From assembly GCA_964016885.1 (NCBI GenBank), contig CAXHJY010000934.1, forward strand, positions 1 through 60,590: a DNA stretch of 60,590 nucleotides, written 5' to 3'. Source of the DNA: Eledone cirrhosa (Eukaryota). The notes beneath the pieces were generated by a model. That model was not told the origin of the DNA. It saw only the letters and a program-made list of their open reading frames with translations, and made no database searches. Each line of letters opens with the position of its first letter. Position 1 is the first letter of the stretch. Made by a program: the position numbers and the translations under genes. This document shows, one piece after another, positions 169-54,529 of the stretch.

Positions 169-235
<67 letters not shown>

Positions 236-14147: not shown

Positions 14148-14233
14148 ACACACATCCCCGGCACAATGGTAACTCATATCTATCTGTCTGTTTATCTATT
14201 TATTTACCACCAACATGGCTATGCTAAGAGTAG

Positions 14234-16525: not shown

Positions 16526-16539
16526 TATCTATTTATTTA

Positions 16540-20437: not shown

Positions 20438-20697
<260 letters not shown>

Positions 20698-25991: not shown

Positions 25992-28900
25992 ATACAGTCA
26001 ATGCGATCAGTCGCATATTTTGGCGTGGGAGACTATTTATTAAATTTAAGATGAATACTATCTCCGACAGTAATGCCACAACTACAGTCATGTTGAATAA
26101 CTGGTTATTCTTCTAACTATATCTTCTGAAGACACCTTTTTTTCGAATTCGTAGAGACATCCGACTAAATACATAATTCATTTTACAAGGAGTTGCTACA
26201 AACAGCATGGCTGAACACAACATCAACAACAAAATTAAGGAAGTACCGAAGACAACCAACAAGAAAGGTAAACAAACTTTATTCAGTTGTAGCTACAGAA
26301 GAGACCGAAATTATAAATCGCATTTCTCTTGGAGTTGCGAACTTAAAAATGATTTATTTAATTGTTATAAAATGGCAAAAAACAATCCTTCCATTGGCTA
26401 TATGAACAGAATGAAGATACATTGGGACGAAATACACCCAGAGCTAAATCACTTAACAGCGAAACAATTACGCCAACAAGCGGCGTTTGTTGAACGTAAA
26501 AATAAGATAAATATTATTAATTGTAAGTCCCCCACAACAAACATGCGATCAACAACACATGCTACAGGTCGCCATGCTACTAGACTTCCTAGCAGCCAGG
26601 TCGAACAGTGCCTTGAAACAACTATACCTGTAAGAAACTTGACACCACCTGTACCATCTAAGTCTACCTCGAATGCTGGGGAAAACACTATCGATAATAA
26701 TATTAATCGAAGAAATAATAATAATAATCGCGAAAAAATTTGACACCACGTGTACCATCGGAGTCTACTTCGACTATTGTGGAAAATACTATCGATAATA
26801 ATAATAATCAAAAGTATAAACAATTGAAAATTTCCCTCAACAAAATCTTCCAGAGAGAAATTAATTCATGTATAAATATCTCTCTTGCTGAACGTATTAA
26901 AACAATATTATTTAATAAAAAAAAAAACAAATAATGAAATATTACGTGTTATTGACGAAATAGGGGATGAATATTTACGACAGATAAAACCCCCAACATT
27001 TTGGCAAATCAACGCCTGTTTATATGCCTTAGAAACGACAGTGAAGCATTATCTTGGTGATAGCAGAGATATTAACAAGAACAGAACACCACCAAAAATA
27101 CCATCATATATAACTAAAATAGAAAAAAAGATTGCTGACCTACGAAAAACCATAGGATATGTGACAATGCTTCTTACATGCAAACAAACACAAAACAAAC
27201 TCACTCCTCACCAACAAAGAGTGAAAAATAAAATAGAGACGATGTTTGGTAACAGTAGAACCAGAACTCTTCAATATAAGCTGATCACCGTCAAACAAGA
27301 ATTGAGAGCTGTTAGCGAAAAACGCCGATACCCGAAGAAGGTAGATGAGAGAAAAGTGCTTAATAAGAGATTCAGACGAAACCAAACATCAGTCTATAGA
27401 GATATGAAGAACAAAATAATAAGTGTCACTGAGGCCCCGACTAAATACATAATTCATTTTACAAGGAGTTGCTACAAACAGCATGGCTGAACACAACATC
27501 AACAACAAAATTAAGGAAGTACCGAAGACAACCAAAGAAAGACATAGATTCCTTTTGGATCAAAATATGGGGTGAAAAGAAGAATGTCAACCAAGATGCA
27601 GTGTAGCTAAGAGAAATCCGAAAGAACTATCGCTCCTACACTACAACAAAAACATACGAAATAAGTGAGGGTACTCTTGAGACTGTGATAGGAAAACTCC
27701 AAGATAAGAAAACACCAGGGAGAGACATGATTGTCGGCCACTGGTAAAAAAAAATGATATTCTATCGGAGGTATCTTACTGACATCTACCAACAAGTTCT
27801 TAAGGGAGATACACTTATACCAGAATGATTGACATTAGCACAAACATTACTGGTCCCCAAGAACAAAGACACCCACTTGGCAAAAAACTACCGACCCATT
27901 GCATGCCAGAACCTGATGTATAAGATGTATACAGCCTGCCTGAACCTATTCCTCCAAGATCACTGTGAAAATAATAACAACATCACAGATGAACAAGCAG
28001 CTGGAAAGAAAGGGGTTTGGGGATGTGCTGAACAACTCCTAATCGACAAAACTGCGATCTCGGAGGTGCGACAACTTAGGAGGAATATGGCTACAGTCTG
28101 GCTGGACTACAGGAAAGCTTTCGATTCTGTTCCCCACTCTTAGATGATAGAGGCCCTCCAACTTGCTAAAGTCCCAGACATTATTGTCAGAACCATAGAG
28201 AGGCTGTCCTCTTCTTGGGCTACTATCCTAGGGTTAAAGACAGAGAGGGAGGACTCTATTTTCACTGATAAAATAAAATATTGCAGGGGTATATTTCAGG
28301 GGGACAGTCTCTCTGTGATATTATTCATCTTGTCATTAAACCCCTTGTCCTTTCTGCTCAAGAAATGTGATCGATACATCATTGGCTCACAGGAGGACAG
28401 AAATACGAACCTAACCCATAATTTCTTTGTGGATGATCTGAAACTCTATGCCAAGAACATGGATGGGATGAAGAAAAATCTTGACCTGGTTACAACGTTC
28501 TCAAAGGATATAGGAACGGAGTTTGGCCAAGATAAATGCTCATACATGACTGTAGAGCGGGGAAAAACAACAACCCAATCAAGCAACATTGTCATCAATG
28601 GCCTAACTGTTTCACCGATATCTGATGAGAACTGCTACAGATACCTGGGGATAGATGAGAACATATCCTATAATGGTATCTGTAATAAAGAACGCGTAAC
28701 CAGGGAATACTACACCCGATTAAGAAAGATCTGGTCATCGGATCTCTCTGCGCAATACAAAACAGTGGCTCACAATGTGTTTGCTGTTCCTGTCCTAACA
28801 CCAACGTTTGGAATACTCAATTGGATGATAGACGAAATCCGAGCAGTTGATGTTGGAACTCGAAAAATACTAAACAACACCGGAAATATCCACATCAACA

Positions 28901-30216
28901 GTGACATAGACCGCCTTTACTTGAAACGTAAGCATGGAGGCAGAGGCCTAACATCAGTCCAGACAACATTTGAATGTCGCATCACATCTCTTCGACAACA
29001 TCTACGAACCTCGAAGCGTAGGAGCCCGTTTCTCGAGCAAGTCTATCTTCATGAATCAGATAAGATCATGAGAGTTGGGAAGGAACTCCTCGAGAGATAT
29101 TCCTTGTGTGATAATCAAAAACTCACACCCAGGGAAGTCGCTCAGCAGTATCGCAGTGAATCCATGGATGAAAAACTGCATGCTTATCAGCAAAAGATCA
29201 TGCATGGATATGTTTCCAGGAAGCTCCAGAGTGAGAGTAATATAGATAAGGAAAGTAGTCTATCTTGGACCAACAATCGCTATATTGGCTCCTACTTTGA
29301 AGGATACGCTTTTGCAATCCAAGAACAGGAGATTAACACGAAATACCTGATTCACAAAAGAGATAGGGATGCAGGCAAAACACCTACATGTGATAACAAG
29401 TGCAGACTCTGCAGAACTAACATCGAGGATATCACCCATGTCATCAGCAGCTGTCCAAAGATGTCATCGCGGTACTATTTACCTATGAGGCATGATGTAG
29501 TGGCCAAAACACTGTACAATGCAGTTCGTAAAAAGGATAGCCCCGATAATAAACACATTAAAAGCTTCAGCAATGTGGAAGACATCCATGTACATAATAT
29601 GAAAGAGTACTGGTGGAATGTTCCAGTAAAAACCCCAATAAAATGCAGGGATAACAGACCAGATATTATGATATGGGACAGGGAGAAGAAAGCATGCACA
29701 GTAGTGGAAATTAGCTGCCCAGCAGATGCCAATATAATATCAAAGATTAGCGAATAGGAGAATATTTATGCAGAACTGATGAGAAATCTGCAGATACTCC
29801 ACCCTGATTACACCTTCAGATTTATGCCTGTGATTATTGGGGCACTGGGATATGTTAGTAACTGCCTCAATACAAATCTTAAGAAGCTAGGCTTCACAGG
29901 AACAGAAAGAACACAACTAGTTAGGAAATTACAAGTACAATCCATTAATGTAACAGTAAAAATATGTAAAACATTCCAAAAATGTTGCATCTAATAACTG
30001 CATATACACATGTACAGATACAAAGCATATACACATGCACACATACAACTCAAAACATCCACATCCACACATACAATAACATCCATATCTACACATGCAT
30101 GCATACATAATCTACCTAGTTGATGTGTAAATTCCAATGAGATGTCTTGTGTCTATGTTAGAAACCGACTCTCTCTCTATTGGGAAAACTTTGTAAAATT
30201 ATAAAACCAGAAGAAC
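25992..30216 (+). mobile_element. Near full-length decayed R4/Dong-like non-LTR retrotransposon (RT and restriction-like endonuclease)
   Basis: NYRPIAC, WLDYRKAFDSVPHS, GIFQGDSLS, FFVDDLK, YRYLG, DRLYLKRKHGGRGL, CRLC..EDITHVISSC, RHD, RPDIMIWD..VVEISCP; multiple stops and frameshifts; (TACA)n on both flanks. Confidence 0.88.
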
Positions 30217-30740: not shown

Positions 30741-31523
30741 CTAGCAGAATGGTCCGGCGTTGCTCGGGATTTGCTATAGGGTTCTTATATATTTGATATA
30801 TATTTATCCTTATCGAACCTCGTGAAATAAATACGTTTGTTTATATTTTGTTATTGTGTATGCAAAAATATCTGTCCATAAATATATAATTATATATATA
30901 TATATATTAAAATAACAGACTAAAGTTTAAGCAAAGAATCACTGCTTTCACCCTTAACGGGATATTCTACCTAAAAGCAGTATGCAGTACACTAAGACTA
31001 ATTGATGTAATCTTTAGCCTTGTTTGTTTATATTTTGTTTTTGTGTATGCAAAAATATCTGTACACGAATATCTATATTAAAATAACATATTAATGTTTA
31101 AGTAAAGAATCGCTGCTTTCAACCTTAACGGGATCTTCTTAAACTAAAAAAATCAATCTGGAAAACAGGAAGACGATACTTTGGTTCGTGAAGACGTTCC
31201 CTGGCATAAGAATATATATACACACACAGACTGATCGCGTCATAATGACGTAATGCAGACAGTCAGGCATACAGACAGATATTATGAAGGCGCGACGTCA
31301 TATCTATGTATCTATCTAAAAAGAGAAAGACTAAGAGAAAGAGAAAGAGATCGCTAAATCGCCTAATGCGGTCCCTAGGGCATTGAAAATTTGAATTTTT
31401 TTGGCTCAAAACACTTCCGGGGTCATACGAGTTACATGTATAAAGTTTGAAAAAAACTGGTTGGGTACTTCTCGAGTTTTAGGGAAACAGACACACAGAC
31501 ATCCTCTGTTTTATATATATAGA
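30741..31523 (-). mobile_element. Non-autonomous Helitron
   Basis: Minus-strand 5' TCTATATATATAAAA and 3' hairpin cccgagcaacgccgg...ctgCTAG followed by T. Confidence 0.72.
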
Positions 31524-33112: not shown

Positions 33113-33310
33113 ACGTTATTCCGGGTTGAATCGGAGGTAACCACAGTAAGTAAGGTACTCAATACATAGCAGCGTATAAAAGTTTTAATATAGATGAGAT
33201 TCTACAGGACTAGAACTGTTTCATTCTTTAGAAATCATCAGGAATTCATGATGATTTCTAAAGAATGAAACAGTTCTAGTCTCCTGTAGAATCTCATTTA
33301 TATTAAAAAT
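33113..33310 (-). mobile_element. Small PLE-derived inverted-repeat insertion with partial hammerhead and tail
   Basis: IR ~33183-33240 / 33249-33308; minus strand CTGATGA-tttctaaagaat-GAAAC...GTC; tail motif gagtacc (33154-33160). Confidence 0.65.
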
Positions 33311-33334
33311 TATATATATATATATATATATGTG

Positions 33335-35256: not shown

Positions 35257-35913
35257 ATGTGTGTTTTTGGCAACCATTCGCGGTGTGGCTCAATGCCGAA
35301 TTAATTAATTAAATAATCAACAATCAGAGAAATATACTAGAAAGTACGCCCATAGAATCATTTGATAAAATATATACAGTATTTCCTCTCCCAATCAGCA
35401 CAATCAACCACACACACAAAAAAAAAATCAATTAAACAAGGCCATAAGATTAAAAGGCACCTATGAAGAAACAATAGATAAATAAACATAGCTATTTATC
35501 CGCGATCAACAGCCACAGAATATTTACCAGTATTTCTAATAGCCCGTGGAAATCGATTAGATATATCGCCAACCATACACAATTAGGTACAAAATCAAAG
35601 TTAGAAGAAAAAATGTATATATGCTTATATACATTTTTTCTTCTAACTTTGATTTTGTACCTAATTGTGTATGGTTGGCGATATATCTAATCGATTTCCA
35701 CGGGCTATTAGAAATACTGGTAAATATTCTGTGGCTGTTGATCGCGGATAAATAGCTATGTTTATTTATCTATTGTTTCTTCATAGGTGCCTTTTAATCT
35801 TATGGCCTTGTTTAATTGATTTTTTTTTTGTGTGTGGTTGATTATGCTGATTGAGAGAGGAAATACTGTATATATTTTATCAAATGATTCTATGGACGTA
35901 CTTTCTTGTATAT
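35257..35913 (-). repeat. ~290-bp-arm palindrome with a one-sided tail (PLE-type architecture; no hammerhead core recognised)
   Basis: Arms ~35332-35621 / 35626-35913, loop tgct; tail with cattgagccac on the minus strand; ends in a TA tract. Confidence 0.8.
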
Positions 35914-36255
35914 ATATATATATACTGTATATATTTTCTCGCTCACATCTCACCCAGGTCAGATGGTCTTTATCTCTCGTCTATGATTTCACAGAACTTA
36001 AGTTCATAGATATCACGGACTTGTCTCTTCTCTTCCTCTCTTTCCGTTGCATTACCATCAATGTTTGTTTACATGTCTCGCTCGCTTCACCCTATTTTAC
36101 GTGTCCCAATAACTTTCTTTAGTTATTGCTCGCACCAACCAGAGGTATATGATCTTTAAAGCGAAGAAATACCAATTAAGGTTGGAAGATAACTGATGAA
36201 GGACTAGTTTTATTCATATGTAACCCATTTGTAACCTCGCAGCACGCCATTTTTC

Positions 36256-36573: not shown

Positions 36574-37035
36574 GAAGTTAATATGTCCAAGGGTACTAAG
36601 TACCCCTAGAAATACATAGGTTGTCTATGAATCAAGGTTGTTCAATGGTATTAATTTGACATACCAGAAATATTAAGATAAGCAGAACAAGCAAAATTCA
36701 ACCAATTTTTAAAAATAAATTAAAAAATATAATATAAATATTTACCTCTGCTAATGGCCCTTACTGATCAGTTTCGCTTTGTAAAACACCAAAAATTCAA
36801 TGGATATCTAATGGAAACCCAAAGTTCATCAGAGAAGCATTTTCCTTTCCTAGGGCTAAAGACCCAGGAACGATAAAATATATCGCCTACTGCCAGCTAA
36901 CACGGGTCTGATAAGGTCGTGAAAGTGACCCGTATGTGAACTGATCAGTAAGGGCCATTAGAAGAGGTAAATATTTATATTATATTTTTTTATTTATTTT
37001 AAAAAATTGGTTGAATTTTGCTTGTTCTGCTTATC

Positions 37036-37042
<7 letters not shown>
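36570..37042 (-). mobile_element. Small PLE-derived inverted-repeat insertion with hammerhead and tail
   Basis: IR ~36670-36773 / 36939-37042; tail 36570-36669; TA tracts both sides. Confidence 0.75.
36753..36841 (-). ncRNA. Type I hammerhead ribozyme motif
   Basis: Minus strand: aatgcttct-CTGATGA-actttg...caaagc-GAAAC-tgatca-GTA-agggccatt; palindromic stem III actgatcagt; A.C at the base of stem II. Confidence 0.72.
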
Positions 37043-37083
<41 letters not shown>

Positions 37084-37209
37084 AAGTTTTATTTAAATTG
37101 TTGGGTTACAACGAGTAAATATTTATAACTGATATAAAAGCACTCAACAAGTATTTGGAGTATATTTACGATATTAAATAAATGGAAACTATATTTATAA
37201 AACCATATT

Positions 37210-37275
37210 TATTTCATTATATATATTTCAGGGATATCATATTAAAAATATGGTATGCCTTCATCAGACAAAATA
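37210..37275 (-). ncRNA. Type I hammerhead ribozyme motif (left arm)
   Basis: Reverse complement of 37396-37461. Confidence 0.75.
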
Positions 37276-37395
37276 CAATATAAACAGTCTTATAAATAGA
37301 TAGATTTGACATACCTTACACTTCAACTTCCATTTAAATGGAAGTTGAAGTGTAAGGTATGTCAAATCTATCTATTTATAAGACTGTTGATATTG

Positions 37396-37461
37396 TATTT
37401 TGTCTGATGAAGGCATACCATATTTTTAATATGATATCCCTGAAATATATATAATGAAATA
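37396..37461 (+). ncRNA. Type I hammerhead ribozyme motif (right arm)
   Basis: tattttgt-CTGATGA(37404)-aggcataccatatt..aatatgatatccct-GAAA(37442)-tatata-TA-atgaaata. Confidence 0.75.
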
Positions 37462-37501
37462 AATATGGTTTTATAAATATAGTTTCCATTTATTTAATAT
37501 C

Positions 37502-37542
<41 letters not shown>

Positions 37543-37784: not shown

Positions 37785-38392
37785 TAGCAGCTGAGCCCGG
37801 TTGCACCCGGGGCCACTTTTTGTTAAGTTAATAATTTGAAAAATATTCCTTTTTTGTTTCTCTCTCTCTTTTTTCTGGGTTAGAAAATGATTAAAACGAA
37901 ATGTTTTACTTTGTGTGAAGTGTTAAGGTATTAGTTGATTTATTTATTATTTAACAATGGAATTTATTTATCTATTTATATATTTAATTATTGTCTATTA
38001 CCGGTTTCAGCATTTTTATGCAGTATAAAATGATAGTGAAATGTATTAGTGTGGTGTCGCACATGTTAAACAGAAGGTGCAGAAAGAATAATGTTATTAT
38101 TTACAAACAAGGTTTATGAAGTGAAAAGAAAAAAGAAAAAGGAAAAAAAAAACGTGCATAAGGTGGAACGTAAAAAGTCAATGTGGAAGAAAAAATAATG
38201 TTATTTACAAGCAAAGTCATTGAAGAATACATTTTCCTATTATTTTCTTTATTACTTTCTGCATTTAGATATCCTAAATAATTTTAAAAATTATGTTATG
38301 CAAAATTTAAATACCTTTTAACATCTTTTTTTTTTTTTTAAAGAAAATAGGGTTTGTCGAAAATTGTCGACTATTTTCTCTTTGCTACTGCT
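37784..38392 (-). mobile_element. Helitron 3' terminal fragment
   Basis: Minus-strand hairpin ccccgggtgcaaccggg followed by ctcagctgCTAG|T; 38224-38392 is shared (inverted) with 50359-50528. Confidence 0.6.
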
Positions 38393-38393
38393 G

Positions 38394-38459
<66 letters not shown>

Positions 38460-38513
38460 TAAAAAAATAATGAATAAAACAATGAAACAGTTCCTTATAT
38501 TAAACAAAAAAAG

Positions 38514-38668
38514 TTCATTATTTAACGATCGTTTCTAGGATATATATGTGTTAGAATTGGCATGCATATTCAACAGATCTATGTACAAAATTATACAAAA
38601 TTATACAAACTATCAAGATTAAATATACATACCAAACACACATATATGCCGTCTTCAGAAATAATGAA
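38514..38668 (-). ncRNA. Type I hammerhead ribozyme motif with long stem II (left arm)
   Basis: Reverse complement of 48642-48796. Confidence 0.7.
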
Positions 38669-39269
38669 ATATATTTATTGATAATAACAACAATTCAAAA
38701 TTTCAGGTCCGTTTGGGAACGGAGTTCAAATTGACCAATGAAAATACAAAAAATGTTATGCAGTTTGGTGTGTGTATATACATGTAATTAACTTCGTACA
38801 CATATTTATACAAAGATATATGCTCACATGCATACGCATGCCAAAAAGATGTATGCAAATACAAAAATTCAAGGCTAATGTCTCTGTAAGTTTATAATCC
38901 ACAGATAAAATGAGTATAGACACATAAATATGAAATAAATGTATACACATATTCACATACTCACACATATCCGTACACTCACACACACACGCGCGTGTAT
39001 GCATAAACATACACATAATTACGAACATACATACACACACACACCCCCACACACATATATATGTGGATATAGTATTATCATAAGCACATGGATATTAATG
39101 CTCGCACATAAACACTGCCACACACATTTAGATCAAGATACAGAAATTAGGTGGGAGGGAGGGAGAGGTCAGTATTCAACGGTTTCGGCAGACTGCTTAT
39201 TTATAGATGTATCTATAAACTTAGAAATAAAAAGAAAAGAAAAGAAAAAGAAAAAAGAAATATATCAAG

Positions 39270-39313
<44 letters not shown>

Positions 39314-39539
39314 TACACATACAACACACACACACACACATATATAAACATATACATATATATATACACACATATACACACATACATATATATATATACA
39401 CACATATATACACATATATACACACACACATATATACACACACATATATACACATACACGCACATATACATACACATACATACTTATATACATACAGACA
39501 TACACATACATACATATATATACACACATATACATACAG

Positions 39540-39570
<31 letters not shown>

Positions 39571-39780
39571 TACATACACACACATACATACTCATACATA
39601 GACATAGATATATATTCACACACACATACGCACTTACATATACGCATATATACAAATACATACGCATCCATATATCCGTATATACATACAAACACCACTA
39701 CACTCTCACACAACTCAGACATACAAAGAAAAAGGTATATACATATACACATATACACATATAAATAGAGATACATATAC

Positions 39781-39847
<67 letters not shown>

Positions 39848-40817
39848 CATATATGTACACACACATACACATACATACATACACATATACACACATACAT
39901 ATATAGTCACACACACACACACACCTACACATACATACACATACACATATATAAAGATATATATACACACACATACACACACACACATATATAATAAATA
40001 TATATATATATATATATACATATATATATACATATACATACACATATACATACATACATACACATACATACATACATATACACACATATATATACACACA
40101 TACACACATACATACATACACACACACATACATACACACACATACATACTCATACATAGACATAGATATATATTCACACACACATACGCACTTACATATA
40201 CGCATATATACAAATACATACGCATCCATATATGCGTATATACATACAAACACCACTACACTCTCACACAACTCAGACATACAAAGAAAAAGGTATATAC
40301 ATATACATATATACACACATAAATAGAGATACATATACACATATATATATATATACATACATATATATATATACCCACACACACATACAACCATAAACAC
40401 ACATACAAACACATACATACACACATATATACATATATATACACACACACAAAAACACACATACACATATATATTTACATATATATATATACATATACAC
40501 ACCTTCACATATATATATATACACATAAGTTATATTATAATAATAAATAATATATATATATACACATACAAATATATATATACATAGACATACATATATA
40601 TATACACACACTCACATATATATGTGCGCACACGTACACATATACACATACACACATATACACATAAACATATACATGTGCATACATGTACATACACACA
40701 TATACCCACATAGATACGAAGATACACATATATATAGAGAGACATACATATACATACACATATATACACACACATACATACACACATATATATACACACA
40801 CATACACGCCCACACAC

Positions 40818-40908
<91 letters not shown>

Positions 40909-42109
40909 ATCATACATCCTTATTTGCATGCGCATATATGTATTTTTATACTCAGATATAAACACCCAAACATATATACACCTACCTACATATATATTCA
41001 TACATACACGCTTACAAATACAGATAATAATAGTATGGGGGAAAGGGGGGGTGGAGAAGGGGATTATAGTAAATATATGTTTCAAGAAACATAGAATATT
41101 AATCTGTATTTGGATCTCAATATATGTTTTTACATAGTTTCAGTGTTAGGAAATGCAAGAAATAAGGCAAAATTATGCATGTCAATATAAGTATACCATT
41201 AATTATAGGTTAACTAAACTAAAGATAGTTAACATATTGATTTCTAAGGTGTAAATTAGTTAGGTTTATAATATTTGAAGCAGAATTTTGAAGTTAAATA
41301 GTAGTAGAGTATTAATTATAGTATAACTAAATTAAAATTATTAACGTTATGGTATCAATATTAGGAAATGAATTTAGTAATAGGGAAAAAACAAATAAAG
41401 TATTACATCGGTAGTAGAATATAAATTATAGGTTAACTAAATTAAAAATTATATATTAATTTCTATAGTATATGTTAATTAGGTATATAATAAATAAAAC
41501 AGATATTGTATTTTATCAATAGCAGAATATAATTATATGCAAACAGAAATCAAAATTAATACATATACATATACATATATATACATATATATATATACAC
41601 ATATATATACATACATACACATACATATACATACATACATATACATATTTTTTCAAAAATTGCAAAGAATATATTAACTAGGTATACATCCAAAACACAT
41701 CCCATTCTATGATTACATGACACTCTGCAATCCGTCTGTATTAGGATACTAATTTTAAGCCAATTAAATTAAATTTTTAGGTTGACTAAATTTAAAACCA
41801 AATTATAAATATATTTCTAAAATGTATATTAATTAGGTCTATAATACTAAAAATTATTTCTCTGTCATTGAATGCACGATATTTTGTTATATTTTATCTG
41901 TAAAGGAATTTTAATAAAGGGTTAAATAAATTAAAATTAATCTATAAATTAAATTACTAAGTATATATTAGTAATATTTAAAGGTTTTTCACAATTTATG
42001 ATTACACAATATTTTATATTCTCATCTGTAGTAGAATTTTAATTAAATTAAATTTATAGGTTAACTAACATTTAAATTAAATTATATATTAATTTCTAAA
42101 ATAATGTTA

Positions 42110-43937
42110 TTAATTAGGTTTATAATATTTAAATGTTTTTTTTAGTTTATGATTACACGATATAATTAATTCCTGTCGTTTATTTAATAGGATATCCTTA
42201 GATTTCATTATTTCAAATAGTTCTTGGGAACATAATCTACATTCATTTCTATTATTTTGATAAGGGGTGGCTCTTTTGAGCACACTCCAGGTCAAATCAT
42301 ATTCTATATTCTTATTTTTATAACTATTGATTTTTTCTGCTAGAGATGTTGTATTAGCCAGTGCGGCATTTTTAAAACTATGCTTGTGGGTATTAAACCT
42401 TGTCTTAAAATTGTTAGAAGTAGCTCCTATATATGAGCAAATAGAATCTTTAGTTTTAACATTACATTTATAGACTATGTTGTTAACAAGACAATTCCCT
42501 TTTAATGGGCAGTTTGCTTTGTTTCTACAGTTACAACCTTTCGTTAATTCTGTATTTGAGGAGATATTATGGTTAGTTTGATGTATTGGTGGTATACTTA
42601 TGGTTTTCTTACATTTATATGCATTATAGGCACTTATATTTTGTTTTATGTTATTTGTTGTTGAGTATGAGAATTTAACTGTAGACCTATTTAAGATTTG
42701 ATGGTATTTGTGGTTTGGCGGGAAGTTTTTCTCTAGGATATAAAAAAATTTTTTAGCAATATTATCCTTAATTTGTAAATTAAATGGAGCATTATACCAA
42801 GTAACCCGTCTATTACGGTTTCTATGTTGTTTATTATTTTTATTATTTTTATAGGTTGTATCGTGATGTTTACTAGGAGGATTAATGTTAATGATCTCAC
42901 CACAACCATTTTTAGTTATATTTGTAGATTTAGGTGTTTTATCTTTTTTATTAGGAGTTTTATTATTAATATTTATTAGAGTTGTATGATGAGTAGTTTT
43001 TTGAGAGTTACTATATTTTATATTAGAAGATTTGGTATTTTGGGGTATAGTGTGGGTGGCATTTAGGTGTGTACTTTTCATTTGGTGTTTGTTGGTAATA
43101 TTAGGTTGTATGTTTTTAGTATTTTTAGTAGAAGGTATATATTCTAATCTATTTTTGTGGCCACTTCTATCTAGAGCTTCGTTATAGAAGGTCGCATTTT
43201 TATCAAATACATCTTGGTTAGAAGAAAGGTTAGAAATTCTAAGTGATATATTATATGCAAGGTTTTTAAGGATAGATTTAGGGTGATTAGATTGTGAGTG
43301 TATGTAATGTAAGTTTTGGTTTGGTTTATGGTAAGGTTGGTAGATACCCGTAGCTAAATCTAAAGTTATATCTAGGAAATTTACTACTTTACTTGTTTTT
43401 TCAAAAGTAATATGAAGATTATAATAGTCTTTAAGGAAAGTTCTAATATGTTTTTTGTTTTTTTCTATTTCTGAAAGGCTAAGGTTGTTAGAAAGAAGAA
43501 GACAGTCATCACGATATAAACCACCTTTAAGGTGGGGAAAGGAGGCATTTATGTTGAAAAGGAGAAAGAGGCCCACAAGATCAGTAATTTGGGCGGAATC
43601 GCTTGAACCCATAGTAATATCAAATAGATTACTATATGTGTTTCTGGTCCAGTATTCATTCTGAAATTCAATAAGTGTTAGTCTAGCATGTGTAATAATA
43701 TTAATGTCATCCAAAGTCAAGTTAGATCTATTTTTAGCAAATATCAATGCTTTGTTCAGGAGTATAGGTGATATAGAAGAATAGTAATTATCTATATCAA
43801 ATTGTAGAAATGAAGCAGAAGATTTACATCTAATATTTTTAAACCAGTTAATTACCTGGGAGGTGTTTTCCCAGAGTGGTAAAATAACGTGTTTTCTTAT
43901 TTGTGGGATGACTCTATCCAAAATTTTTTTGCTAATT
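42110..43937 (-). CDS. 5'-truncated Penelope-like RT and GIY-YIG endonuclease
   Basis: FLQFDIDNYYSSI, ITMGSSDS, LYRDDCL, VNFLDITLDL (RT); TWYNAPF, CNCRNKANCPLKGNC linker; IVYKC...YIG...R..H, CRLC..E..LN...CNH (GIY-YIG); frame open but lacks its N-terminus. Confidence 0.92.
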
Positions 43938-45203
43938 AGTAAAGTAGTAAATTTCCTAGATATAACTTTAGATTTAGCTACGGGTATCTACCAACCTTAC
44001 CATAAACCAAACCAAAACTTACATTACATACACTCACAATCTAATCACCCTAAATCTATCCTTAAAAACCTTGCATATAATATATCACTTAGAATTTCTA
44101 ACCTTTCTTCTAACCAAGATGTATTTGATAAAAATGCGACCTTCTATAACGAAGCTCTAGATAGAAGTGGCCACAAAAATAGATTAGAATATATACCTTC
44201 TACTAAAAATACTAAAAACATACAACCTAATATTACCAACAAACACCAAATGAAAAGTACACACCTAAATGCCACCCACACTATACCCCAAAATACCAAA
44301 TCTTCTAATATAAAATATAGTAACTCTCAAAAAACTACTCATCATACAACTCTAATAAATATTAATAATAAAACTCCTAATAAAAAAGATAAAACACCTA
44401 AATCTACAAATATAACTAAAAATGGTTGTGGTGAGATCATTAACATTAATCCTCCTAGTAAACATCACGATACAACCTATAAAAATAATAAAAATAATAA
44501 ACAACATAGAAACCGTAATAGACGGGTTACTTGGTATAATGCTCCATTTAATTTACAAATTAAGGATAATATTGCTAAAAAATTTTTTTATATCCTAGAG
44601 AAAAACTTCCCGCCAAACCACAAATACCATCAAATCTTAAATAGGTCTACAGTTAAATTCTCATACTCAACAACAAATAACATAAAACAAAATATAAGTG
44701 CCTATAATGCATATAAATGTAAGAAAACCATAAGTATACCACCAATACATCAAACTAACCATAATATCTCCTCAAATACAGAATTAACGAAAGGTTGTAA
44801 CTGTAGAAACAAAGCAAACTGCCCATTAAAAGGGAATTGTCTTGTTAACAACATAGTCTATAAATGTAATGTTAAAACTAAAGATTCTATTTGCTCATAT
44901 ATAGGAGCTACTTCTAACAATTTTAAGACAAGGTTTAATACCCACAAGCATAGTTTTAAAAATGCCGCACTAGCAGAAAAAATCAATAGTTATAAAAATA
45001 AGAATATAGAATATGATTTGACCTGGAGTGTGCTCAAAAGAGCCACCCCTTATCAAAATAATAGAAATGAATGTAGATTATGTTCCCAAGAACTATTTGA
45101 AATAATGAAATCTAAGGATATCCTATTAAATAAACGACAGGAATTAATTATATCGTGTAATCATAAACTAAAAAAAACATTTAAATATTATAAACCTAAT
45201 TAA
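43938..45203 (+). CDS. Inverted, more truncated copy of the Penelope ORF (RT thumb and GIY-YIG)
   Basis: Translation identical to the minus copy from SKVVNFLDI onward except a 6-aa in-frame deletion (ANTTSL). Confidence 0.88.
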   Translation, partial: SKVVNFLDITLDLATGIYQPYHKPNQNLHYIHSQSNHPKSILKNLAYNISLRISNLSSNQDVFDKNATFYNEALDRSGHKNRLEYIPSTKNTKNIQPNITNKHQMKSTHLNATHTIPQNTKSSNIKYSNSQKTTHHTTLININNKTPNKKDKTPKSTNITKNGCGEIININPPSKHHDTTYKNNKNNKQHRNRNRRVTWYNAPFNLQIKDNIAKKFFYILEKNFPPNHKYHQILNRSTVKFSYSTTNNIKQNISAYNAYKCKKTISIPPIHQTNHNISSNTELTKGCNCRNKANCPLKGNCLVNNIVYKCNVKTKDSICSYIGATSNNFKTRFNTHKHSFKNAALAEKINSYKNKNIEYDLTWSVLKRATPYQNNRNECRLCSQELFEIMKSKDILLNKRQELIISCNHKLKKTFKYYKPN

Positions 45204-46404
45204 TAACATTATTTTAGAAATTAATATATAATTTAATTTAAATGTTAGTTAACCTATAAATTTAATTTAATTAAAATTCTACTACAGATGAGAATATAAA
45301 ATATTGTGTAATCATAAATTGTGAAAAACCTTTAAATATTACTAATATATACTTAGTAATTTAATTTATAGATTAATTTTAATTTATTTAACCCTTTATT
45401 AAAATTCCTTTACAGATAAAATATAACAAAATATCGTGTATTCAATGACAGAGAAATAATTTTTAGTATTATAGACCTAATTAATATACATTTTAGAAAT
45501 ATATTTATAATTTGGTTTTAAATTTAGTCAACCTAAAAATTTAATTTAATTGGCTTAAAATTAGTATCCTAATACAGACGGATTGCAGAGTGTCATGTAA
45601 TCATAGAATGGGATGTGTTTTGGATGTATACCTAGTTAATATATTCTTTGCAATTTTTGAAAAAATATGTATATGTATGTATGTATATGTATGTGTATGT
45701 ATGTATATATATGTGTATATATATATATGTATATATATGTATATGTATATGTATTAATTTTGATTTCTGTTTGCATATAATTATATTCTGCTATTGATAA
45801 AATACAATATCTGTTTTATTTATTATATACCTAATTAACATATACTATAGAAATTAATATATAATTTTTAATTTAGTTAACCTATAATTTATATTCTACT
45901 ACCGATGTAATACTTTATTTGTTTTTTCCCTATTACTAAATTCATTTCCTAATATTGATACCATAACGTTAATAATTTTAATTTAGTTATACTATAATTA
46001 ATACTCTACTACTATTTAACTTCAAAATTCTGCTTCAAATATTATAAACCTAACTAATTTACACCTTAGAAATCAATATGTTAACTATCTTTAGTTTAGT
46101 TAACCTATAATTAATGGTATACTTATATTGACATGCATAATTTTGCCTTATTTCTTGCATTTCCTAACACTGAAACTATGTAAAAACATATATTGAGATC
46201 CAAATACAGATTAATATTCTATGTTTCTTGAAACATATATTTACTATAATCCCCTTCTCCACCCCCCCTTTCCCCCATACTATTATTATCTGTATTTGTA
46301 AGCGTGTATGTATGAATATATATGTAGGTAGGTGTATATATGTTTGGGTGTTTATATCTGAGTATAAAAATACATATATGCGCATGCAAATAAGGATGTA
46401 TGAT

Positions 46405-46501
<97 letters not shown>

Positions 46502-47471
46502 GTGTGTGGGCGTGTATGTGTGTGTATATATATGTGTGTATGTATGTGTGTGTATATATGTGTATGTATATGTATGTCTCTCTATATATATGTGTATCTT
46601 CGTATCTATGTGGGTATATGTGTGTATGTACATGTATGCACATGTATATGTTTATGTGTATATGTGTGTATGTGTATATGTGTACGTGTGCGCACATATA
46701 TATGTGAGTGTGTGTATATATATATGTATGTCTATGTATATATATATTTGTATGTGTATATATATATATTATTTATTATTATAATATAACTTATGTGTAT
46801 ATATATATATGTGAAGGTGTGTATATGTATATATATATATGTAAATATATATGTGTATGTGTGTTTTTGTGTGTGTGTATATATATGTATATATGTGTGT
46901 ATGTATGTGTTTGTATGTGTGTTTATGGTTGTATGTGTGTGTGGGTATATATATATATGTATGTATATATATATATATGTGTATATGTATCTCTATTTAT
47001 GTGTGTATATATGTATATGTATATACCTTTTTCTTTGTATGTCTGAGTTGTGTGAGAGTGTAGTGGTGTTTGTATGTATATACGCATATATGGATGCGTA
47101 TGTATTTGTATATATGCGTATATGTAAGTGCGTATGTGTGTGTGAATATATATCTATGTCTATGTATGAGTATGTATGTGTGTGTATGTATGTGTGTGTG
47201 TATGTATGTATGTGTGTATGTGTGTATATATATGTGTGTATATGTATGTATGTATGTGTATGTATGTATGTATATGTGTATGTATATGTATATATATATG
47301 TATATATATATATATATATATTTATTATATATGTGTGTGTGTGTATGTGTGTGTATATATATCTTTATATATGTGTATGTGTATGTATGTGTAGGTGTGT
47401 GTGTGTGTGTGACTATATATGTATGTGTGTATATGTGTATGTATGTATGTGTATGTGTGTGTACATATATG

Positions 47472-47536
<65 letters not shown>

Positions 47537-47746
47537 GTATATGTATCTCTATTTATATGTGTATATGTGTATATGTATATACCTTTTTCTTTGTATGTCT
47601 GAGTTGTGTGAGAGTGTAGTGGTGTTTGTATGTATATACGGATATATGGATGCGTATGTATTTGTATATATGCGTATATGTAAGTGCGTATGTGTGTGTG
47701 AATATATATCTATGTCTATGTATGAGTATGTATGTGTGTGTATGTA

Positions 47747-47777
<31 letters not shown>

Positions 47778-48641
47778 CTGTATGTATATGTGTGTATATA
47801 TATGTATGTATGTGTATGTCTGTATGTATATAAGTATGTATGTGTATGTATATGTGCGTGTATGTGTATATATGTGTGTGTATATATGTGTGTGTGTATA
47901 TATGTGTATATATGTGTGTATATATATATATGTATGTGTGTATATGTGTGTATATATATATGTATATGTTTATATATGTGTGTGTGTGTGTGTTGCATGT
48001 GTAGATGTATATATATATATATATATATATTTTCTTGATATATTTCTTTTTTCTTTTTTCTTTTTCTTTTCTTTTCTTTTTATTTCTAAGTTTATAGATA
48101 CATCTATAAATAAGCAGTCTGCCGAAACCGTTGAATACTGACCTCTCCCCCCCTCCCACCTAATTTCTGTATCTTGATCTAAATGTGTGTGGCAGTGTTT
48201 ATGTGCGTGCATTAATATCCATGTGCTTATGATAATACTATATCCACATATATATGTGTGTGGGGGTGTGTGTGTGTATGTATGTTCGTAATTATGTGTA
48301 TGTTTATGCATACACGCGCGTGTGTGTGTGAGTGTACGGATATGTGTGAGTATGTGAATATGTGTATACATTTATTTCATATTTATGTGTCTATACGCAT
48401 TTTATCTGTGGATTATAAACTTACAGAGACATTAGCCTTGAATTTTTGTATTTGCATACATCTTTTTGGCATGCGTATGCATGTGAGCATATATCTTTGT
48501 ATAAATATGTGTACGAAGTTAATTACATGTATATACACACACCAAACTGCATAACATTTTTTGTATTTTCATTGGTCAATTTGAACTCCGTTCCCAAACG
48601 GACCTGAAATTTTGAATTGTTGTTATTATCAATAAATATAT

Positions 48642-48796
48642 TTCATTATTTCTGAAGACGGCATATATGTGTGTTTGGTATGTATATTTAATCTTGATAG
48701 TTTGTATAATTTTGTATAATTTTGTACATAGATCTGTTGAATATGCATGCCAATTCTAACACATATATATCCTAGAAACGATCGTTAAATAATGAA
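48642..48796 (+). ncRNA. Type I hammerhead ribozyme motif with long stem II (right arm)
   Basis: Stem I ttcattattt/aaataatgaa (10 bp); CTGAAGA 48652-48658; stem II atatatgtgt/acacatatat with a large loop; GAAA 48775-48778; palindromic stem III acgatcgt; triplet GUU. Confidence 0.72.
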
Positions 48797-48990
48797 CTTT
48801 TTTTGTTTAATATAAGGAACTGTTTCATTGTTTTATTCATTATTTTTTTAATATTTTATCTTGACTCTGTATTCCGTTTATCTTTCACCGAAAGTGATTT
48901 TTCATTGCATCTCTTCTTTCCATGATATCCGGACTACATTGAGTTCTTCATACGGATTGGACACTACCGTAAACTCTTGGTAGATTTATC

Positions 48991-49078
<88 letters not shown>

Positions 49079-49111
49079 CATATATATATATACATGTATA
49101 TATATATATAT

Positions 49112-49508
49112 AGCGGCGATGAATTAGTTTAGCGAGGTTTTTTATATGAAATATAATAAACAAAATAAAATAAACAAACAAGCAAATAAATAAATAAATA
49201 TATAGACAGACTGAATAAAAAATGGCGTAGACATACAACACAACAGGAGGAAAAAATATAACACCACTGACGATGTTGCAGATGTGCAACGAAAGATTTA
49301 TGTAAATTATGTAAACTATATATATGTGTTTGTGTCTATATTGTATCTGTATTATTTTTGACCGTCGGTCAGTCAATGGCAACATTGAGGACCGAGTAAG
49401 TTAGATCGCAGATATAAAAGACAGCGAGAAGCGAAAACCAACCACACAGTGAGTGTGTTCTGTTATTAATTCTGGCAATATTACGCAAATATGACCCTCC
49501 CCAAGTAT

Positions 49509-49512: not shown

Positions 49513-49559
<47 letters not shown>

Positions 49560-49566
<7 letters not shown>

Positions 49567-50110
49567 TAAAATAACAGATTAAAGTTTAAGCAAAGAATCG
49601 CTGCTTTCACCCTTAACGGGATCTTCTGAAACTAACAAAGTCAATCTGTAAACGCAGAACTGGATATTTCAAAAAACGTTGCAACCGGAGGAAGACAGGA
49701 AGACGATACTTTGGTTCGTGGAAACGTTCGCTGGCGACCACCTAAGAGAACATTAGTCTACGACCTCTTTTATACCATAAACGTGGTTCTGTCTTTGCGC
49801 GTAAATGTTTTTCACCGCTCCTATTAATGACGTATTATTCGTTTTTTCCCGTTCTTCGCCAGCGAACGTCTCCACGAACCAAAGTATCGTCTTCCTGTCT
49901 TCCTCCGGTTGCAACGTTTTTTGAAATATCCAGTTCTGCGTTTACAGATTGACTTTGTTAGTTTCAGAAGATCCCGTTAAGGGTGAAAGCAGCGATTCTT
50001 TGCTTAAACTTTAATCTGCTATTTTAATAAATATTTGCTCTACGGTTCTTATATATTTGATATATATTTATCCTCATCGAGCCCTCTTTGGATTTTAGTC
50101 TTCAAATTTA
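49560..50110 (+). mobile_element. Small PLE-derived inverted-repeat insertion with variant hammerhead (CAGAAGA core) and tail
   Basis: IR ~49560-49736 / 49856-50033; cagatt..agttt-CAGAAGA-tccc gttaa gggt-GAAA-gca..tgcT-T-aaact..aatctg (49945-50018). Confidence 0.7.
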
Positions 50111-50358: not shown

Positions 50359-51175
50359 CAGCAGTAGCAAAGAGAAAATAGTCGACAATTTTCGACAAAC
50401 CCTATTTTCTTTAAAAAAAAAAAAAAGATGTTAAAAGGTATTTAAATGTTGCATAAAATAATTTTAAAAATTATTTAGAATATCTAAATACAGAAAGTAA
50501 TAAAGATAATAATAGGAAAATGTATTCTACCAAAATTATAAAACATGTACAGTACTTCAGTTTATACAATGTTTTTAACTTTTTTCTTTGGAGCATATAT
50601 GAAGAGTTTGTGGGCGCTTCCTACTATGGAACATCCTACATACAACTGACCATATGAGAAACAGCCTCTTCTAGGTGAAGCCGTACAACCAGCAGGGTTT
50701 GACCTTGGTACTTGTTAATGGTCATTGTGTAACTGACTCTCACTAGGAATTGCAATCGAAACGAAAAGGGTCATCTGTTGGTATTAGCGGCATTCTAGGT
50801 ATAAATATGATGCATCCCTTACCACATCCACTGACGATTTCAGCTTCGATAATGTAATTCAATCATAACCATATGTGTCCCATTGCACACGCTTGGCTGA
50901 TCTAGGTTTCTGAGAAGCCTGATGACTGTGCCCTTATCCAATTCAAGGTTGTGTGGCGGCCTACTGGGCGGTTCCATACCTTTGAGAAATCCAACGGGAT
51001 AATGAACAATATCGTCCTCGTCGACAACTTCCGGGATCATTTGTGAGAGATTTCTGTTGATGGCATTGATGGTGATATTTGGGGTGGAGGGAGGATTGCA
51101 CTTTTATACAGCCATTCTTCGTTGGAATGGTGGATTTCGAAATTGGCGAACACTTGATTAATTAAGCTATCAACG
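50359..51175 (-). mobile_element. Decayed Helitron fragment: PIF1 helicase C-terminal half and 3' region
   Basis: YPVGFLKGMEPPSRPPHNLELDKGTVIRLLRNLD..VCNGT; QFLVRVSYTMTINKYQGQT; VGSAHKLFIYAP..VKNIV. Confidence 0.82.
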
Positions 51176-51269: not shown

Positions 51270-51625
51270 ATATGAAGTATTTCCGTCGGAAAGGTACAGG
51301 AAAAAAGAGTGCTCTATGTAGGCTACAGAGCTTATTAGTTATATAATAAACAACATAAGATAATTATTTCATTTACCAGTGGTTTCTTGACGGCAGATAT
51401 TTATATCTGTCTTCAGTCGTAAGAATGAATAAATAACATGGTGTTTTTATTAAATATGGATTTATTAAATCCATTTATTAAATCCATTTATTAAATCCAT
51501 TTATTAAATCCATTTATTAAATCATATTATTCTGACGACTGAAGACAGATATAAATATCTGCCTTCAAGAAACCACTGGTAAATGAAATAATTATCTTAT
51601 GTTGCTTATTATATAACTAAAGATA
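51270..51625 (-). mobile_element. Small PLE-derived inverted-repeat insertion with hammerhead, tail and a 13-bp tandem in the spacer
   Basis: IR ~51335-51425 / 51529-51620; about five copies of atttattaaatcc at 51459-51523; tail motif at 51307-51314. Confidence 0.72.
51524..51590 (+). ncRNA. Type I hammerhead ribozyme motif
   Basis: tatt-CTGACGA(51532)-c-tgaagacagatat aa atatctgccttca-a-GAAA(51569)-cc act gg-TA-aatga; the other arm has CTTACGA but a better stem I (ttcatt/aatgaa). Confidence 0.68.
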
Positions 51626-51665
51626 ATATATATATATATATATATATAAATGAAAATAGAGAAAT

Positions 51666-54487
51666 TAATCGTCGTCGCCCTTGTAACGTACAATCCCTCT
51701 ATAGAATGTCGAAGTGGAGTCTCCGCTGATTGCTGCGCCCGACTGCCAGAGGACTGTGAGCGCCTGAGCGCATTCAATGTGCCCGGCGCCCATCGTTTTC
51801 GGTCTTTTCTTGACCCAGGATTGCAGCTCCGTCAGCGAAACGAGCTGTGGGAAAGCCTGTCTCACAAACGGTTCCCACACCGGTTGGGGTCGGTGAGGAA
51901 TACCTGGAGATGCCGCAGCCTCAGCGCATGTTTGCGCATCATCAGCCACGGCATTCCCAGCCCTCCGTTGAAAGGATGCTGACAGTAGACGGATCTCCTC
52001 ACCAGCGGAGCCTGCTTCTTCCACAGAAACTTGGCGAGGTCTTCACGGGGACAAGGCACGACAGTCAAGCGGTAGTAGATGACGGACGCTATGAAAGTGT
52101 TCGCCACCTCCGCTCGACCTTTTAAGGACAGTTTGCACTCTGCCCACTGGGTGAATGCAAACACCTTGGCCGTGACCTCGTTCTAGTTTTTCTCCACCTG
52201 GAGGTCTGGACCGAACCAGACCCCGAGAAATTTCACCGGTCCGTCTGTCCAGCGTCCAACTACGCTGTCAGACGTCATCGGTTTGCCTCTCCACGTACCC
52301 AGTTGCAAACCGACAGACTTGTCCGGGTTTAGTTTTGCTCCCGTCAGCGTTTCGTATTCTTTCAGTAAGTTGCCGATCACCCCGATTTCCGAGGTGCTCG
52401 ACACCATTACCGTCACGTCGTCGGCATAAGCCGACGCCGCTTTGCGCAGTCCCGGTTCTAGAGGGATGCCCTGCAACAGCTCCAATTTCCGCAGTAGTAG
52501 CTCTAGAGTCAATACATACAGAATGGAGGAGAGAGGGCACCCCTGTCGAATGGAACGCGTGATTGCGAACGGCTCTGATAGGTAGCCGTTCACCTTGACC
52601 CTCGAGCAGATGCTGGTGTGCATCGCCTCGATCCATCCTCTGAACACGGGACCGAAACGGGCCGCCTTGAGAACCGCTTCCAAGTATCGATGGTCGACCC
52701 TATCGAATGCCTTAGACTGATCCAAGTTGATCAGAGCCCCACCGAAGCCGGGTTTACTACCAACCCTCTCTATGATGTATCGCATGAGGTGGAGGTTGTC
52801 GTGTATGGACCTGATCGGGATTGCACACGTTTGCGCTTTCCCTACCAGGTTCTCGACGACAAGCGCCAACCTCGTCGCTAGCACCTTGGCCAAAATCTTT
52901 AACTCTGTGTTGAGCAGAGTTATGGGCCTGAAGTTGTTAATTTCGTCCCCCTTGTTCTCGTCTTTCCTGATCAGCGTTACTACGCCCTTGCCTGCAGAAC
53001 TGGGAATTCTCCCGTTCTTCTGCCAATTGCAGTAGACGGCTTCGAGGACGCCAGAGAACAAGTCCGGCATGCCTATGTAAAACTCTTAGGGTAGACCATC
53101 TAGACCGGGTGACTTGCGTTTCCCGCAGCCGCCCAGAGCGTCCCGTATCTCAGTGTCCGTGATCGGTCTTTCGAAGAACTCGACGTCCGTGTTCGAGAGA
53201 TGCGGCAGGCCGTCGAGGTAGGAATTAAAGTCCATTGCCCCGTTCGGCTCACCGTCGTTCTGCTCAAACAGTCGCGCAAAGTGCCGCTGAAAGGCCGCGC
53301 ACATTTGCTTGGGGTCAAGTAGCACGCGTCCGTTTTGGTCTTTCAAAGACCGAATCGTGGACTTGTTGCCACTTTTTGCCTCCGCCACTCTGGCCCAGCT
53401 GACAGCTTTCGCTCCTTCGTTTCCTAGAGCACGTGTTTTGCTTCTGACCACGCAGACTTCGTGTTTCGCATCGAAGAACTGGTCCAGTGCCGTTCTCGAC
53501 ACTAACATTCTAGCCGCGTTGCCACTTCTAAGTGCCTCCTCTATCTTGGCTACTAGTTCTCTTTCTATTTTGTTTTTCTCTAAGGCTAACTCTCTGCTAT
53601 ACCCTATCGATTCTATTCTAATTGCTTTCTTGAGAGAGTACCACCATCTATTGTTGACGATGGCTCCCATTAACTGTTGCTTGACTAGTCTACTTCTCCG
53701 TTCACTGTCAGCTTTGCGTGCCGGCAACGACACGTTCAGCTTCCAGTATCCGGGTCCCTGTCTATGTATTCTATCACGGTTGACTAAGCAGACGACTAAT
53801 TTGTGATCTGAATAGGCAACTATGTGCATTCGTGGACAGCTTAACATCTCCTTGTCCCTTTCTCTAATGAAGAACCTATCTAAATACGATTTAGATGTCC
53901 CACTGCGGTTTGCCCACGTCCACTGTGGTGCAGTCGGGAAATCCAGTCGATACCTATCGGCCAGTTGGAATTGGCTGATTAAAGTTTTGAGGCTGTTGCA
54001 CCCCGCTCTACTGGGACATGCTCCCACATAGTCCCATCGTACATCTAGGATACCATTCCAGTCCCCCACTAAAAGTAAGGAGCGAGACGTTCCCAGAAAA
54101 GACTCTAGACGCTTAAAGAAGTCTGGCCGTGATTGCGATTGCCCGGTCGGGGCATAAACGGCCACCAGTCTGAAGGCTCCACCTCCAATACTGTTCACGT
54201 CTAGGACTACCAGTCTACCATCCGGGTCCAAGTGTACTTGCTGTACTTCGACGTCCAGGTTCTTCCGAAACATGACAGCCACTCCCCCTCCACCTCCTGG
54301 CTGACAGAGAGATGCGTAGATCTCAAAGTCGTCGAAGATGGGGGTTAGTTGCTGCCTGTTGTGGATCCTGGACTCGGTGATGGCTATCATCCATACTGTG
54401 TGACCTAAGGTCGTTTAAAAGTTGGCCCTGTTTCCAGGGCATCCCTAGGCCACGCACACTCACGGTTCCAACTCGTAAACTAGCCAT
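51666..54487 (-). pseudogene. Tx1 ORF2 (APE and RT), disrupted and 3'-truncated
   Basis: MASLRVGTVSVRGLG, AITES, VYAP, VGDWN, YLDRF, SDH, GYWKLN, PGLDGLP*, DQSKAFD, QGCPLS, YADD; stops, frameshifts and deletions. Confidence 0.9.
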
Positions 54488-54529
54488 GTTGGTGAAGAAA
54501 AGTTGGAGAAAAAGGACGAAAGGTGCACT

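Follow-up and report, generated by a model that had tools for sequence, protein, structure and literature searches.

The window analysed here is a stretch of 60,590 nucleotides from Eledone cirrhosa (assembly GCA_964016885.1, contig CAXHJY010000934.1, positions 1 to 60,590 of the forward strand). Comparison of the window with itself reveals an inverted repeat (38451–43393 / 43938–48859) formed by two head-to-head, 5′-truncated copies of a Penelope-like element (PLE), in which the open reading frame (ORF) and a hammerhead motif are separated by about 3.4 kb of AT-rich repeats and microsatellites, hereafter referred to as the cargo. A sequence-only reading of the same DNA had placed the cargo at 45204–48641, between the ORF stop and the hammerhead, and we arrive at the same borders: the stop codon occupies 45201–45203, stem I of the hammerhead begins at 48642 and its core at 48652. 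The features of the insertion are listed in order of position.

38394–38453, no strand: (TA)n target run at the left insertion end
38451–43937, minus strand: left, longer 5′-truncated copy with ORF, 3.4-kb UTR, hammerhead and short 3′ end
38669–42109, minus strand: mirror copy of the 3.4-kb UTR (the cargo)
42110–43936, minus strand: open 608-codon ORF remnant, 5′-truncated, running from 43936 to its stop at 42110
43932–43939, no strand: head-to-head inversion junction with an 8-nt palindrome and a probable microhomology of 2–3 nt
43938–45203, plus strand: right copy, 3′ part of the ORF with an 18-nt in-frame deletion
45147–46130, plus strand: decayed tandem array whose ~140-bp unit begins in the last ~18 ORF codons
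45665–45754, plus strand: TATG microsatellite of 90 nt, inside the span of the element-derived array
46396–48030, plus strand: compound TG/TA/TATG microsatellite, ~1.63 kb
46946–47846, plus strand: direct duplication with a 556-bp offset (46946–47290 / 47502–47846)
48031–48097, plus strand: long run of pyrimidines that ends in AG and may be a 3′ splice site (not significant)
48642–48796, plus strand: predicted type I hammerhead (motif scan, folding)
48787–48859, plus strand: post-hammerhead segment up to the short 3′ end common to both arms, with a predicted hairpin that competes with stem I
48860–48993, plus strand: one-sided tail (long 3′ end), right arm only
48994–49112, no strand: (TA)n target run at the right insertion end

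The ORF of the left copy encodes, in this order, a reverse transcriptase (RT, from just before motif A), the thumb, an N/T/K-rich linker, a CxCX5C motif and a GIY-YIG-type endonuclease (EN) with CxxC and CxH, the motif labels having been assigned by reading the homolog alignment; the right arm repeats the last 1266 bases of this frame. A protein search with the ORF returned 148 homologs, which align over the RT and EN regions of proteins of 700–800 aa with E-values down to 1e-141, and the order of RT and C-terminal GIY-YIG endonuclease in a single ORF is that of the EN+ PLEs. A Pfam scan of the ORF protein reported 0 families, and neither the protein searches nor a look-up of protein clusters gave a close relative, the best identity being 48% among the best 120 of the 148 matches and 56% in another search. 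The Hydra clade is diagnosed by N-terminal RWK and DKT (not DKG) motifs, the CxCX5C and CxxC/CxH motifs, insertion into (TA)n and canonical hammerheads (Craig et al., 2021, PMC8557442). The CxCX5C linker and the CxxC and CxH motifs flanking a conserved E and N are all present in the query, while the N-terminal RWK/DKT region is missing from the truncated frame and the one DK[TS] match of the query is spurious, lying in the linker; among the homologs of at least 680 aa (n=53), DK[TS] is found in 53, DKG in 0 and RW[KR] in 34. Judged by its motifs, target and hammerhead, the element is a Hydra-clade PLE. A Naiad/Chlamys PLE, with an N-terminal endonuclease and no canonical hammerhead, is ruled out, as the endonuclease is C-terminal here and a hammerhead is present. 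The RT–EN linker measures 119 aa, compared with a median of 24 and a maximum of 72 aa in the 62 of 120 homologs in which it was measurable, among the matches listed. An N/T/K-rich in-frame insert (43080–42770, minus strand, ORF residues ~269–372) lies between the RT thumb and the endonuclease linker and recalls the Asn-rich inserts of Adineta Penelope elements.

Aligned in full (43938–48859 against 43393–38451), the two arms differ by 5 substitutions and 5 indels, three of the indels lying in (TA)n, a fourth in a TC-rich run and the fifth being the 18-nt deletion in the right-arm ORF; the claim that the whole interval is present in both arms therefore holds. The palindrome stops at the 3′ end of the element, where both arms end at the same point, ~72 nt beyond the predicted cleavage site. 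The left arm abuts directly on (TA)n, and the right arm continues into a one-sided tail of 134 nt that carries the hairpin motif of the clade and is followed by (TA)n. The element consequently reaches beyond the palindrome on the right, to ~48993, which corrects the earlier reading. The (TA)n runs at both ends correspond to the insertion preference of the Hydra clade and mask any target-site duplication. The head-to-head truncated arms are an instance of the tandem or inverted pseudo-LTR structures that PLEs form from 5′-truncated copies, and head-to-head copies occur at 5 of 13 loci of relatives (described below). The truncated left copy by itself measures 5.5 kb, whereas published Hydra-clade members are generally shorter than 3 kb (PMC8557442), a trait that is descriptive and not defining for the clade. 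The sequence-only reading had proposed that the cargo moved with the element, and the shared arm end past the cleavage site, the (TA)n ends and the extra tail on one arm all agree with this; an inverted duplication running past the element boundaries, which would speak against it, is not seen, because the arms stop at the element end. Most probably, then, the cargo travelled with the element. As the palindrome ends at the 3′ end of the element, with (TA)n on the left and a one-sided tail on the right, a later duplication at the DNA level is unlikely, and we think it probable that the insertion is recent, a Hydra-clade PLE with C-terminal GIY-YIG having been put into a (TA)n run as two 5′-truncated copies. 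By analogy with known PLE biology, these copies would have passed through an RNA intermediate, with start sites at the short and long ends.

A type I hammerhead near the 3′ end, as is characteristic of PLEs, was located by motif scan. It is predicted to consist of stem I (48642–48651/48787–48796, a perfect 10 bp), the core CUGAAGA (48652–48658), stem II (48659–48774), GAAA (48775) and a palindromic stem III, with cleavage predicted after 48786. None of 3000 dinucleotide shuffles of 48060–48859 reproduced the motif, and the region folds with a z-score of −4.8. Rfam reported no hammerhead at 48642–48796 at the gathering threshold, and with an E-value threshold it gave only sub-threshold matches, nearly all of them microRNA and snoRNA models on low-complexity sequence, again with no hammerhead. 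Stem II spans 116 nt, as opposed to 12–31 nt in 13 relatives, and has a C-A pair at its base, a position occupied by U-U in 3 of the 13 relatives and commonly so in the published Hydra hammerheads of the supplement to PMC8557442. In the 3′-extended RNA, the hammerhead conformer is predicted to lie 5 kcal/mol above an alternative fold in which a downstream hairpin out-competes stem I; given this disadvantage and the C-A pair, activity of the ribozyme is not assured. The ribozyme of Poseidon_Ac is described as protein-assisted and dispensable for insertion in vitro (PMC11167929). The competing hairpin (48787–48833) would sequester the 3′ strand of stem I and could turn the ribozyme off once the 3′ end has been transcribed.

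The tail contains a hairpin of the form RCTC-stem-loop-stem-TT-GAGY (48864–48944), including the TT bulge found in relatives, with a loop of 63 nt against 2–7 nt in relatives. The same hairpin directly follows the short end in 4 of 12 ends of relatives, and within the window it occurs in the left arms only of two further inverted pairs, 37083–37503 and, in a relaxed form, 51274–51629. Its strict form arose in 3 of 5000 shuffles, a count that is optimistic because the motif was defined after the candidates had been seen; taken alone, the hairpin is not unusually stable (z −0.96). A one-sided tail is itself a PLE feature, and the one observed here is longer than the 30–40 bp described. Short and long ends are accounted for, in the work on Poseidon_Ac, by two sites at which RT starts, both of them downstream of the hammerhead (PMC11167929). 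A search for the N-terminus of the ORF in the tail gave no HMM match.

For comparison we used 13 loci (L001–L013) of distant relatives (36–45% identity), found by a scan of genome-collection contigs. The distance from the stop codon to the hammerhead core is 3448 nt in the present element and 79–193 nt in the relatives (median 124; 13 ORF ends at 10 loci), that is, the UTR is 18–44 times as long as theirs. This count left out L010 and L013, which had no C-terminal match, the second L003 arm, where only 112 nt of contig follow the stop, and L004, which was missed by the strict scan but shows a core ~140 nt beyond its stop. Counting by eye gives stop-to-hammerhead distances of about 50–220 nt for the six Hydra consensus sequences of File S7 (PMC8557442), and one L008 copy has a 3′ end that, by eye, is nearly identical to the published Hydra-2_Amil consensus. 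The 13 loci hold Hydra PLEs of animal type, which carry hammerheads and are flanked by (TA)n; they are situated on contigs of bacterial MAGs (six of them from one MAG), and these PLE-bearing contigs are probably host contamination.

The cargo begins with diverged AT-rich repeats, which had been noted at 45204–46170; they are real, but start earlier, at ~45147, inside the ORF. Five units of the array are significant (77–88% ungapped identity) and two, U4 and U6, are not. Units 2, 3, 5 and 7 each match the 57 bases of unit 1 that are coding (z 4.5–7.5; 0 of 500 shuffles each), and on this similarity the first ~0.95 kb of the cargo is made of element-derived copies of the ORF end and not of host DNA. 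The units differ from each other by 12–23% while the 608-codon ORF stays open, for which the probability of acquiring no stop with 10% neutral change is ~2e-4; on these grounds the array has probably been carried by an element under active selection. The compound microsatellite, described earlier as ~2 kb, is present, although the main block is shorter (46396–48030) and is preceded by the separate 90-nt tract at 45665. Every tract in the main block is TG on the sense strand of the element, and seven pure (TA)8+ runs are included. The internal duplication at ~556 bp could be reproduced: 154 rare 14-mers recur at offset 556, the dominant repeat spacing, as compared to 12 at the next offset, and its core of 345 nt contains 14 mismatches and no gaps (96% identity). 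Tracts of alternating purines and pyrimidines make up 37.5% of the cargo versus 11.6% of the window outside the arms, a figure that falls to 5.2% without the first 3.9 kb of the window. Fixation by reverse transcription of ADAR-type A-to-G editing was considered as a source of the TG bias and is not supported, as the host array at 1–3616 shows the same pattern and, among the arm differences, 0 of 5 substitutions are A/G.

The motif scan detected no CUGANGA core in the cargo, nor was a tail hairpin found there, from which it follows that no relic of an earlier 3′ end is discernible. A core at 45285, at +82 relative to the stop, was considered as the remnant of a proximal hammerhead, but it is only one of five one-mismatch cores and is sufficiently explained by chance, the chance expectation of such a core in the usual window being ~0.2 by hand estimate. 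The ~140-bp units were likewise dismissed as retrozyme or partial-tandem copies, being too short and lacking the core that each tandem unit of a non-LTR retrozyme array carries. Where 3.4 would be expected, 45204–48625 contains no AATAAA on the sense strand (P 0.03; four hexamers were tested, this being one), which counts weakly for a native UTR. This result does not discriminate between a native UTR and a captured one, since the ORF itself contains 6 AATAAA and read-through is needed by both.

The surroundings of the insertion are rich in related structures. PLE 3′ ends of a second family, equipped with hammerheads and located in (TA)n, occur at 37083–37503 and 20697–20966, the former being a miniature inverted pair with the long end on its left arm and sharing the stem II base with the hammerhead at 48652. 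At 51274–51629 a third family is present as two PLE 3′ ends in inverted orientation. Their hammerheads are of Hydra type (51416, minus; 51539, plus), the tail is found on one side only, and a 13-bp x5 tandem repeat lies immediately upstream of the right hammerhead. Tail-like hairpins are found at 37654 (plus) and 36414 (minus). A ~105-bp repeat at 3618–3723, which recurs at 36136–36242, has a CUGANGA word and no complete hammerhead; it follows a compound TATA/TATG microsatellite of at least 3.6 kb (1–3616). Further palindromes or foldbacks, many of them beside (TA)n, lie at 35332–35913, 36670–37042, 33175–33316, 49559–50034 and 30908–31205. A 170-bp inverted pair (38224–38393 / 50359–50528, 96.5% identity) encloses the insertion site; it may belong to an older foldback element, as its terminal repeats, and no target-site duplication was seen there. 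LINE-type RT ORFs occupy 14173–20126, 51670–54494, 21249–24998 and 26177–29757, and Pfam RVT_1 confirmed three of these frames. We take several related copies to be L1/Tx1-like, the frame of 1249 codons with APE and RT to be RTE-like and a broken element to be R4-like. Such a set is consistent with the combination of RTE, L1-Tx1, R4-like and Penelope elements listed for Octopus vulgaris. Within the 60-kb window, no third copy of the distinctive cargo anchors was found.

On balance we favour the view that the 3.4 kb between stop and hammerhead are the family's own 3′ UTR or pseudo-LTR, which has probably grown for the most part in place, because the AT-rich repeats copy the element's own ORF end, no relic of a proximal 3′ end is left and the other cis-elements are enlarged as well. 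The anatomy and boundaries of the insertion, the element origin of the first ~0.95 kb and the enlargement of the other parts can be read directly at the locus. On these we infer that sibling copies would share the UTR and that 46130–48640 would likewise have arisen in place. Growth may have proceeded by tandem duplication of the ORF end into ~140-bp units, microsatellite slippage and a later duplication of 556 bp, and the same lineage would also have lengthened stem II, the tail hairpin and the RT–EN linker. As reverse transcription starts downstream of the hammerhead, everything upstream of it would be copied, and each insertion reaching far enough would leave behind compound microsatellite, ~1.7 kb of it, including new (TA)n runs. 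Against growth in place stands the segment 46130–48640, which has no traceable element origin and a host-like look, its TG/TA make-up matching the array at 1–3616.

The capture of host DNA, as in Adineta vaga Pen1, we regard as a possible, if doubtful, origin of this segment. The proximal 3′ end would have been lost in an ancestor and ~2.5 kb of microsatellite-rich host DNA (46130–48640) read through to a downstream solo end of the element's own family, which would have supplied the hammerhead and the RT start; the spacer would then be specific to the copy or sub-lineage. In Pen1_Av, unique spacers of 0.9–1.5 kb precede the 3′ pLTR and differ between copies that are 90% identical (PMC3846280). 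Solo PLE ends are dense in this region, with two other families contributing five more hammerheads within 60 kb, and the central cargo resembles host arrays in composition. Yet neither a relic core nor a tail hairpin remains near the stop, the first ~0.95 kb derive from the element and the distal hammerhead and tail are themselves enlarged. There is also no flank match to the family at 20870/37404 beyond the core and the stem II base (upstream and tail z −0.2 to 0.9); capture of the hammerhead from that neighbouring family is not supported, since the flanks are not significantly similar.

In a special case of the native UTR, the cargo would for the most part be a spliceosomal intron that the pseudo-LTR has retained. 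It would be removed by splicing from the mRNA of a tandem copy further downstream but kept in transposition, and microsatellites would have enlarged it in the manner of host introns. PLEs do retain introns, and the one described in the literature for D. virilis sits in the pLTR and ends at helix I of the hammerhead. The cargo offers one strong polypyrimidine+AG site on the sense strand, at 48090, and none antisense; however, 8 such sites turned up when both strands of 46 kb of other sequence were scanned in the same way, which makes one in 3.4 kb unremarkable, the site lies 550 nt upstream of helix I and the donor-like words fall mostly within the microsatellite. We consider an intron very unlikely.

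Long palindromes are a known class of artefact. The cargo could in principle be no more than flanking sequence, with a PLE ORF on one side and an unrelated hammerhead on the other, brought into both arms by a later inverted duplication at the DNA level or an assembly or amplification chimera, for which the 170-bp inverted pair outside the arms might be cited, but this is highly improbable: that pair is more diverged than the arms (6 differences in 170 versus 5 substitutions in ~4900), 1.5 kb of DNA without a match lies between it and the right arm, the short end of the element is where the arms terminate, a tail follows on one side and (TA)n borders both, the layout is repeated at 37083–37503, 51274–51629 and in relatives, and the 18-nt deletion distinguishes the arms. 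On its divergence and the gap we rejected the 170-bp pair as part of the arm duplication, and its 96.5% identity and 1.5-kb separation suggest an older feature and not one that the duplication overran.

Several known systems share parts of this architecture. Hydra-clade PLEs as described in PMC8557442 agree in the order of RT and GIY-YIG, the CxCX5C linker, the CxxC and CxH motifs around conserved E and N, a hammerhead near the 3′ end with a short palindromic stem III, the (TA)n target, the inverted 5′-truncated copy and the one-sided tail, and they differ in that stem II, the tail loop and the linker are several-fold longer in the present element. Pen1_Av and Pen2a_Av of Adineta vaga (Arkhipova et al., 2013, PMC3846280) likewise have a long spacer (0.9–1.5 kb) between ORF and 3′ pLTR, an Asn-rich insert between RT and EN and palindromes at inverted junctions; they belong, however, to the Penelope/Poseidon clade and their spacer is unique, copy-specific and attributed to host capture, whereas the present one is 2–4 times longer, built of repeats and partly derived from its own ORF end. 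Transfer of host DNA of up to 4 kb by PLEs is reviewed in PMC6431247. In Litopenaeus vannamei, recent Penelope copies (>98% identical) carry microsatellites along, and transposable elements have been proposed as carriers of simple sequence repeats (SSRs) (Commun Biol 2021, PMC7878876); in the present element the SSR has one particular place, between the stop codon and the hammerhead. Poseidon_Ac (Frangieh et al., 2024, PMC11167929), of a different clade, resembles the present element in its AT-rich targets and, as far as the analogy carries, in two RT starts with short and long ends, and differs in a tail of 30–40 nt against ~134 nt here. Inverted arms, long spacer, Asn-rich linker and carriage of SSRs thus each have a published precedent, and we found no report of a multi-kb Hydra-clade UTR in the open-licence literature.

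The element is a Hydra-clade PLE with a hugely long UTR and a concerted enlargement of its RNA elements and linker, an extreme form of known PLE behaviour. A single event deposited two copies of a ~1.7-kb compound microsatellite at this site, with seven (TA)8+ runs in the right arm, and it is for this one locus, with its two copies, that the spreading of microsatellites by a PLE is demonstrated. A wider extrapolation is decidedly tentative and, in our estimate, rather unlikely to hold in full: an active Hydra-clade family of ~6 kb, inflated in UTR, stem II, RT-start hairpin and linker, would have (TA)n as its target and, with every copy, bring along seven new (TA)n runs and 1.7 kb of compound microsatellite, feeding itself in a loop that would produce a measurable share of the complex microsatellites of the genome together with its own future targets, with the 116-nt stem II hiding the ribozyme from standard descriptors. 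The locus bears on the tolerance of PLEs for long 3′ UTRs, as one 18–44 times the length of those of relatives goes along with an open ORF and an apparently recent insertion. In their enlarged form, the hammerhead and the tail hairpin are variants made by nature and show which parts of PLE 3′ ends are under constraint, and they imply that searches with descriptors or Rfam overlook some PLE ribozymes. If sibling copies share the UTR, the family would provide a datable and countable test of transposable elements as microsatellite carriers in a microsatellite-rich genome; if they differ, host capture of the Pen1_Av type would extend to the Hydra clade, at a scale of 2–3 kb.
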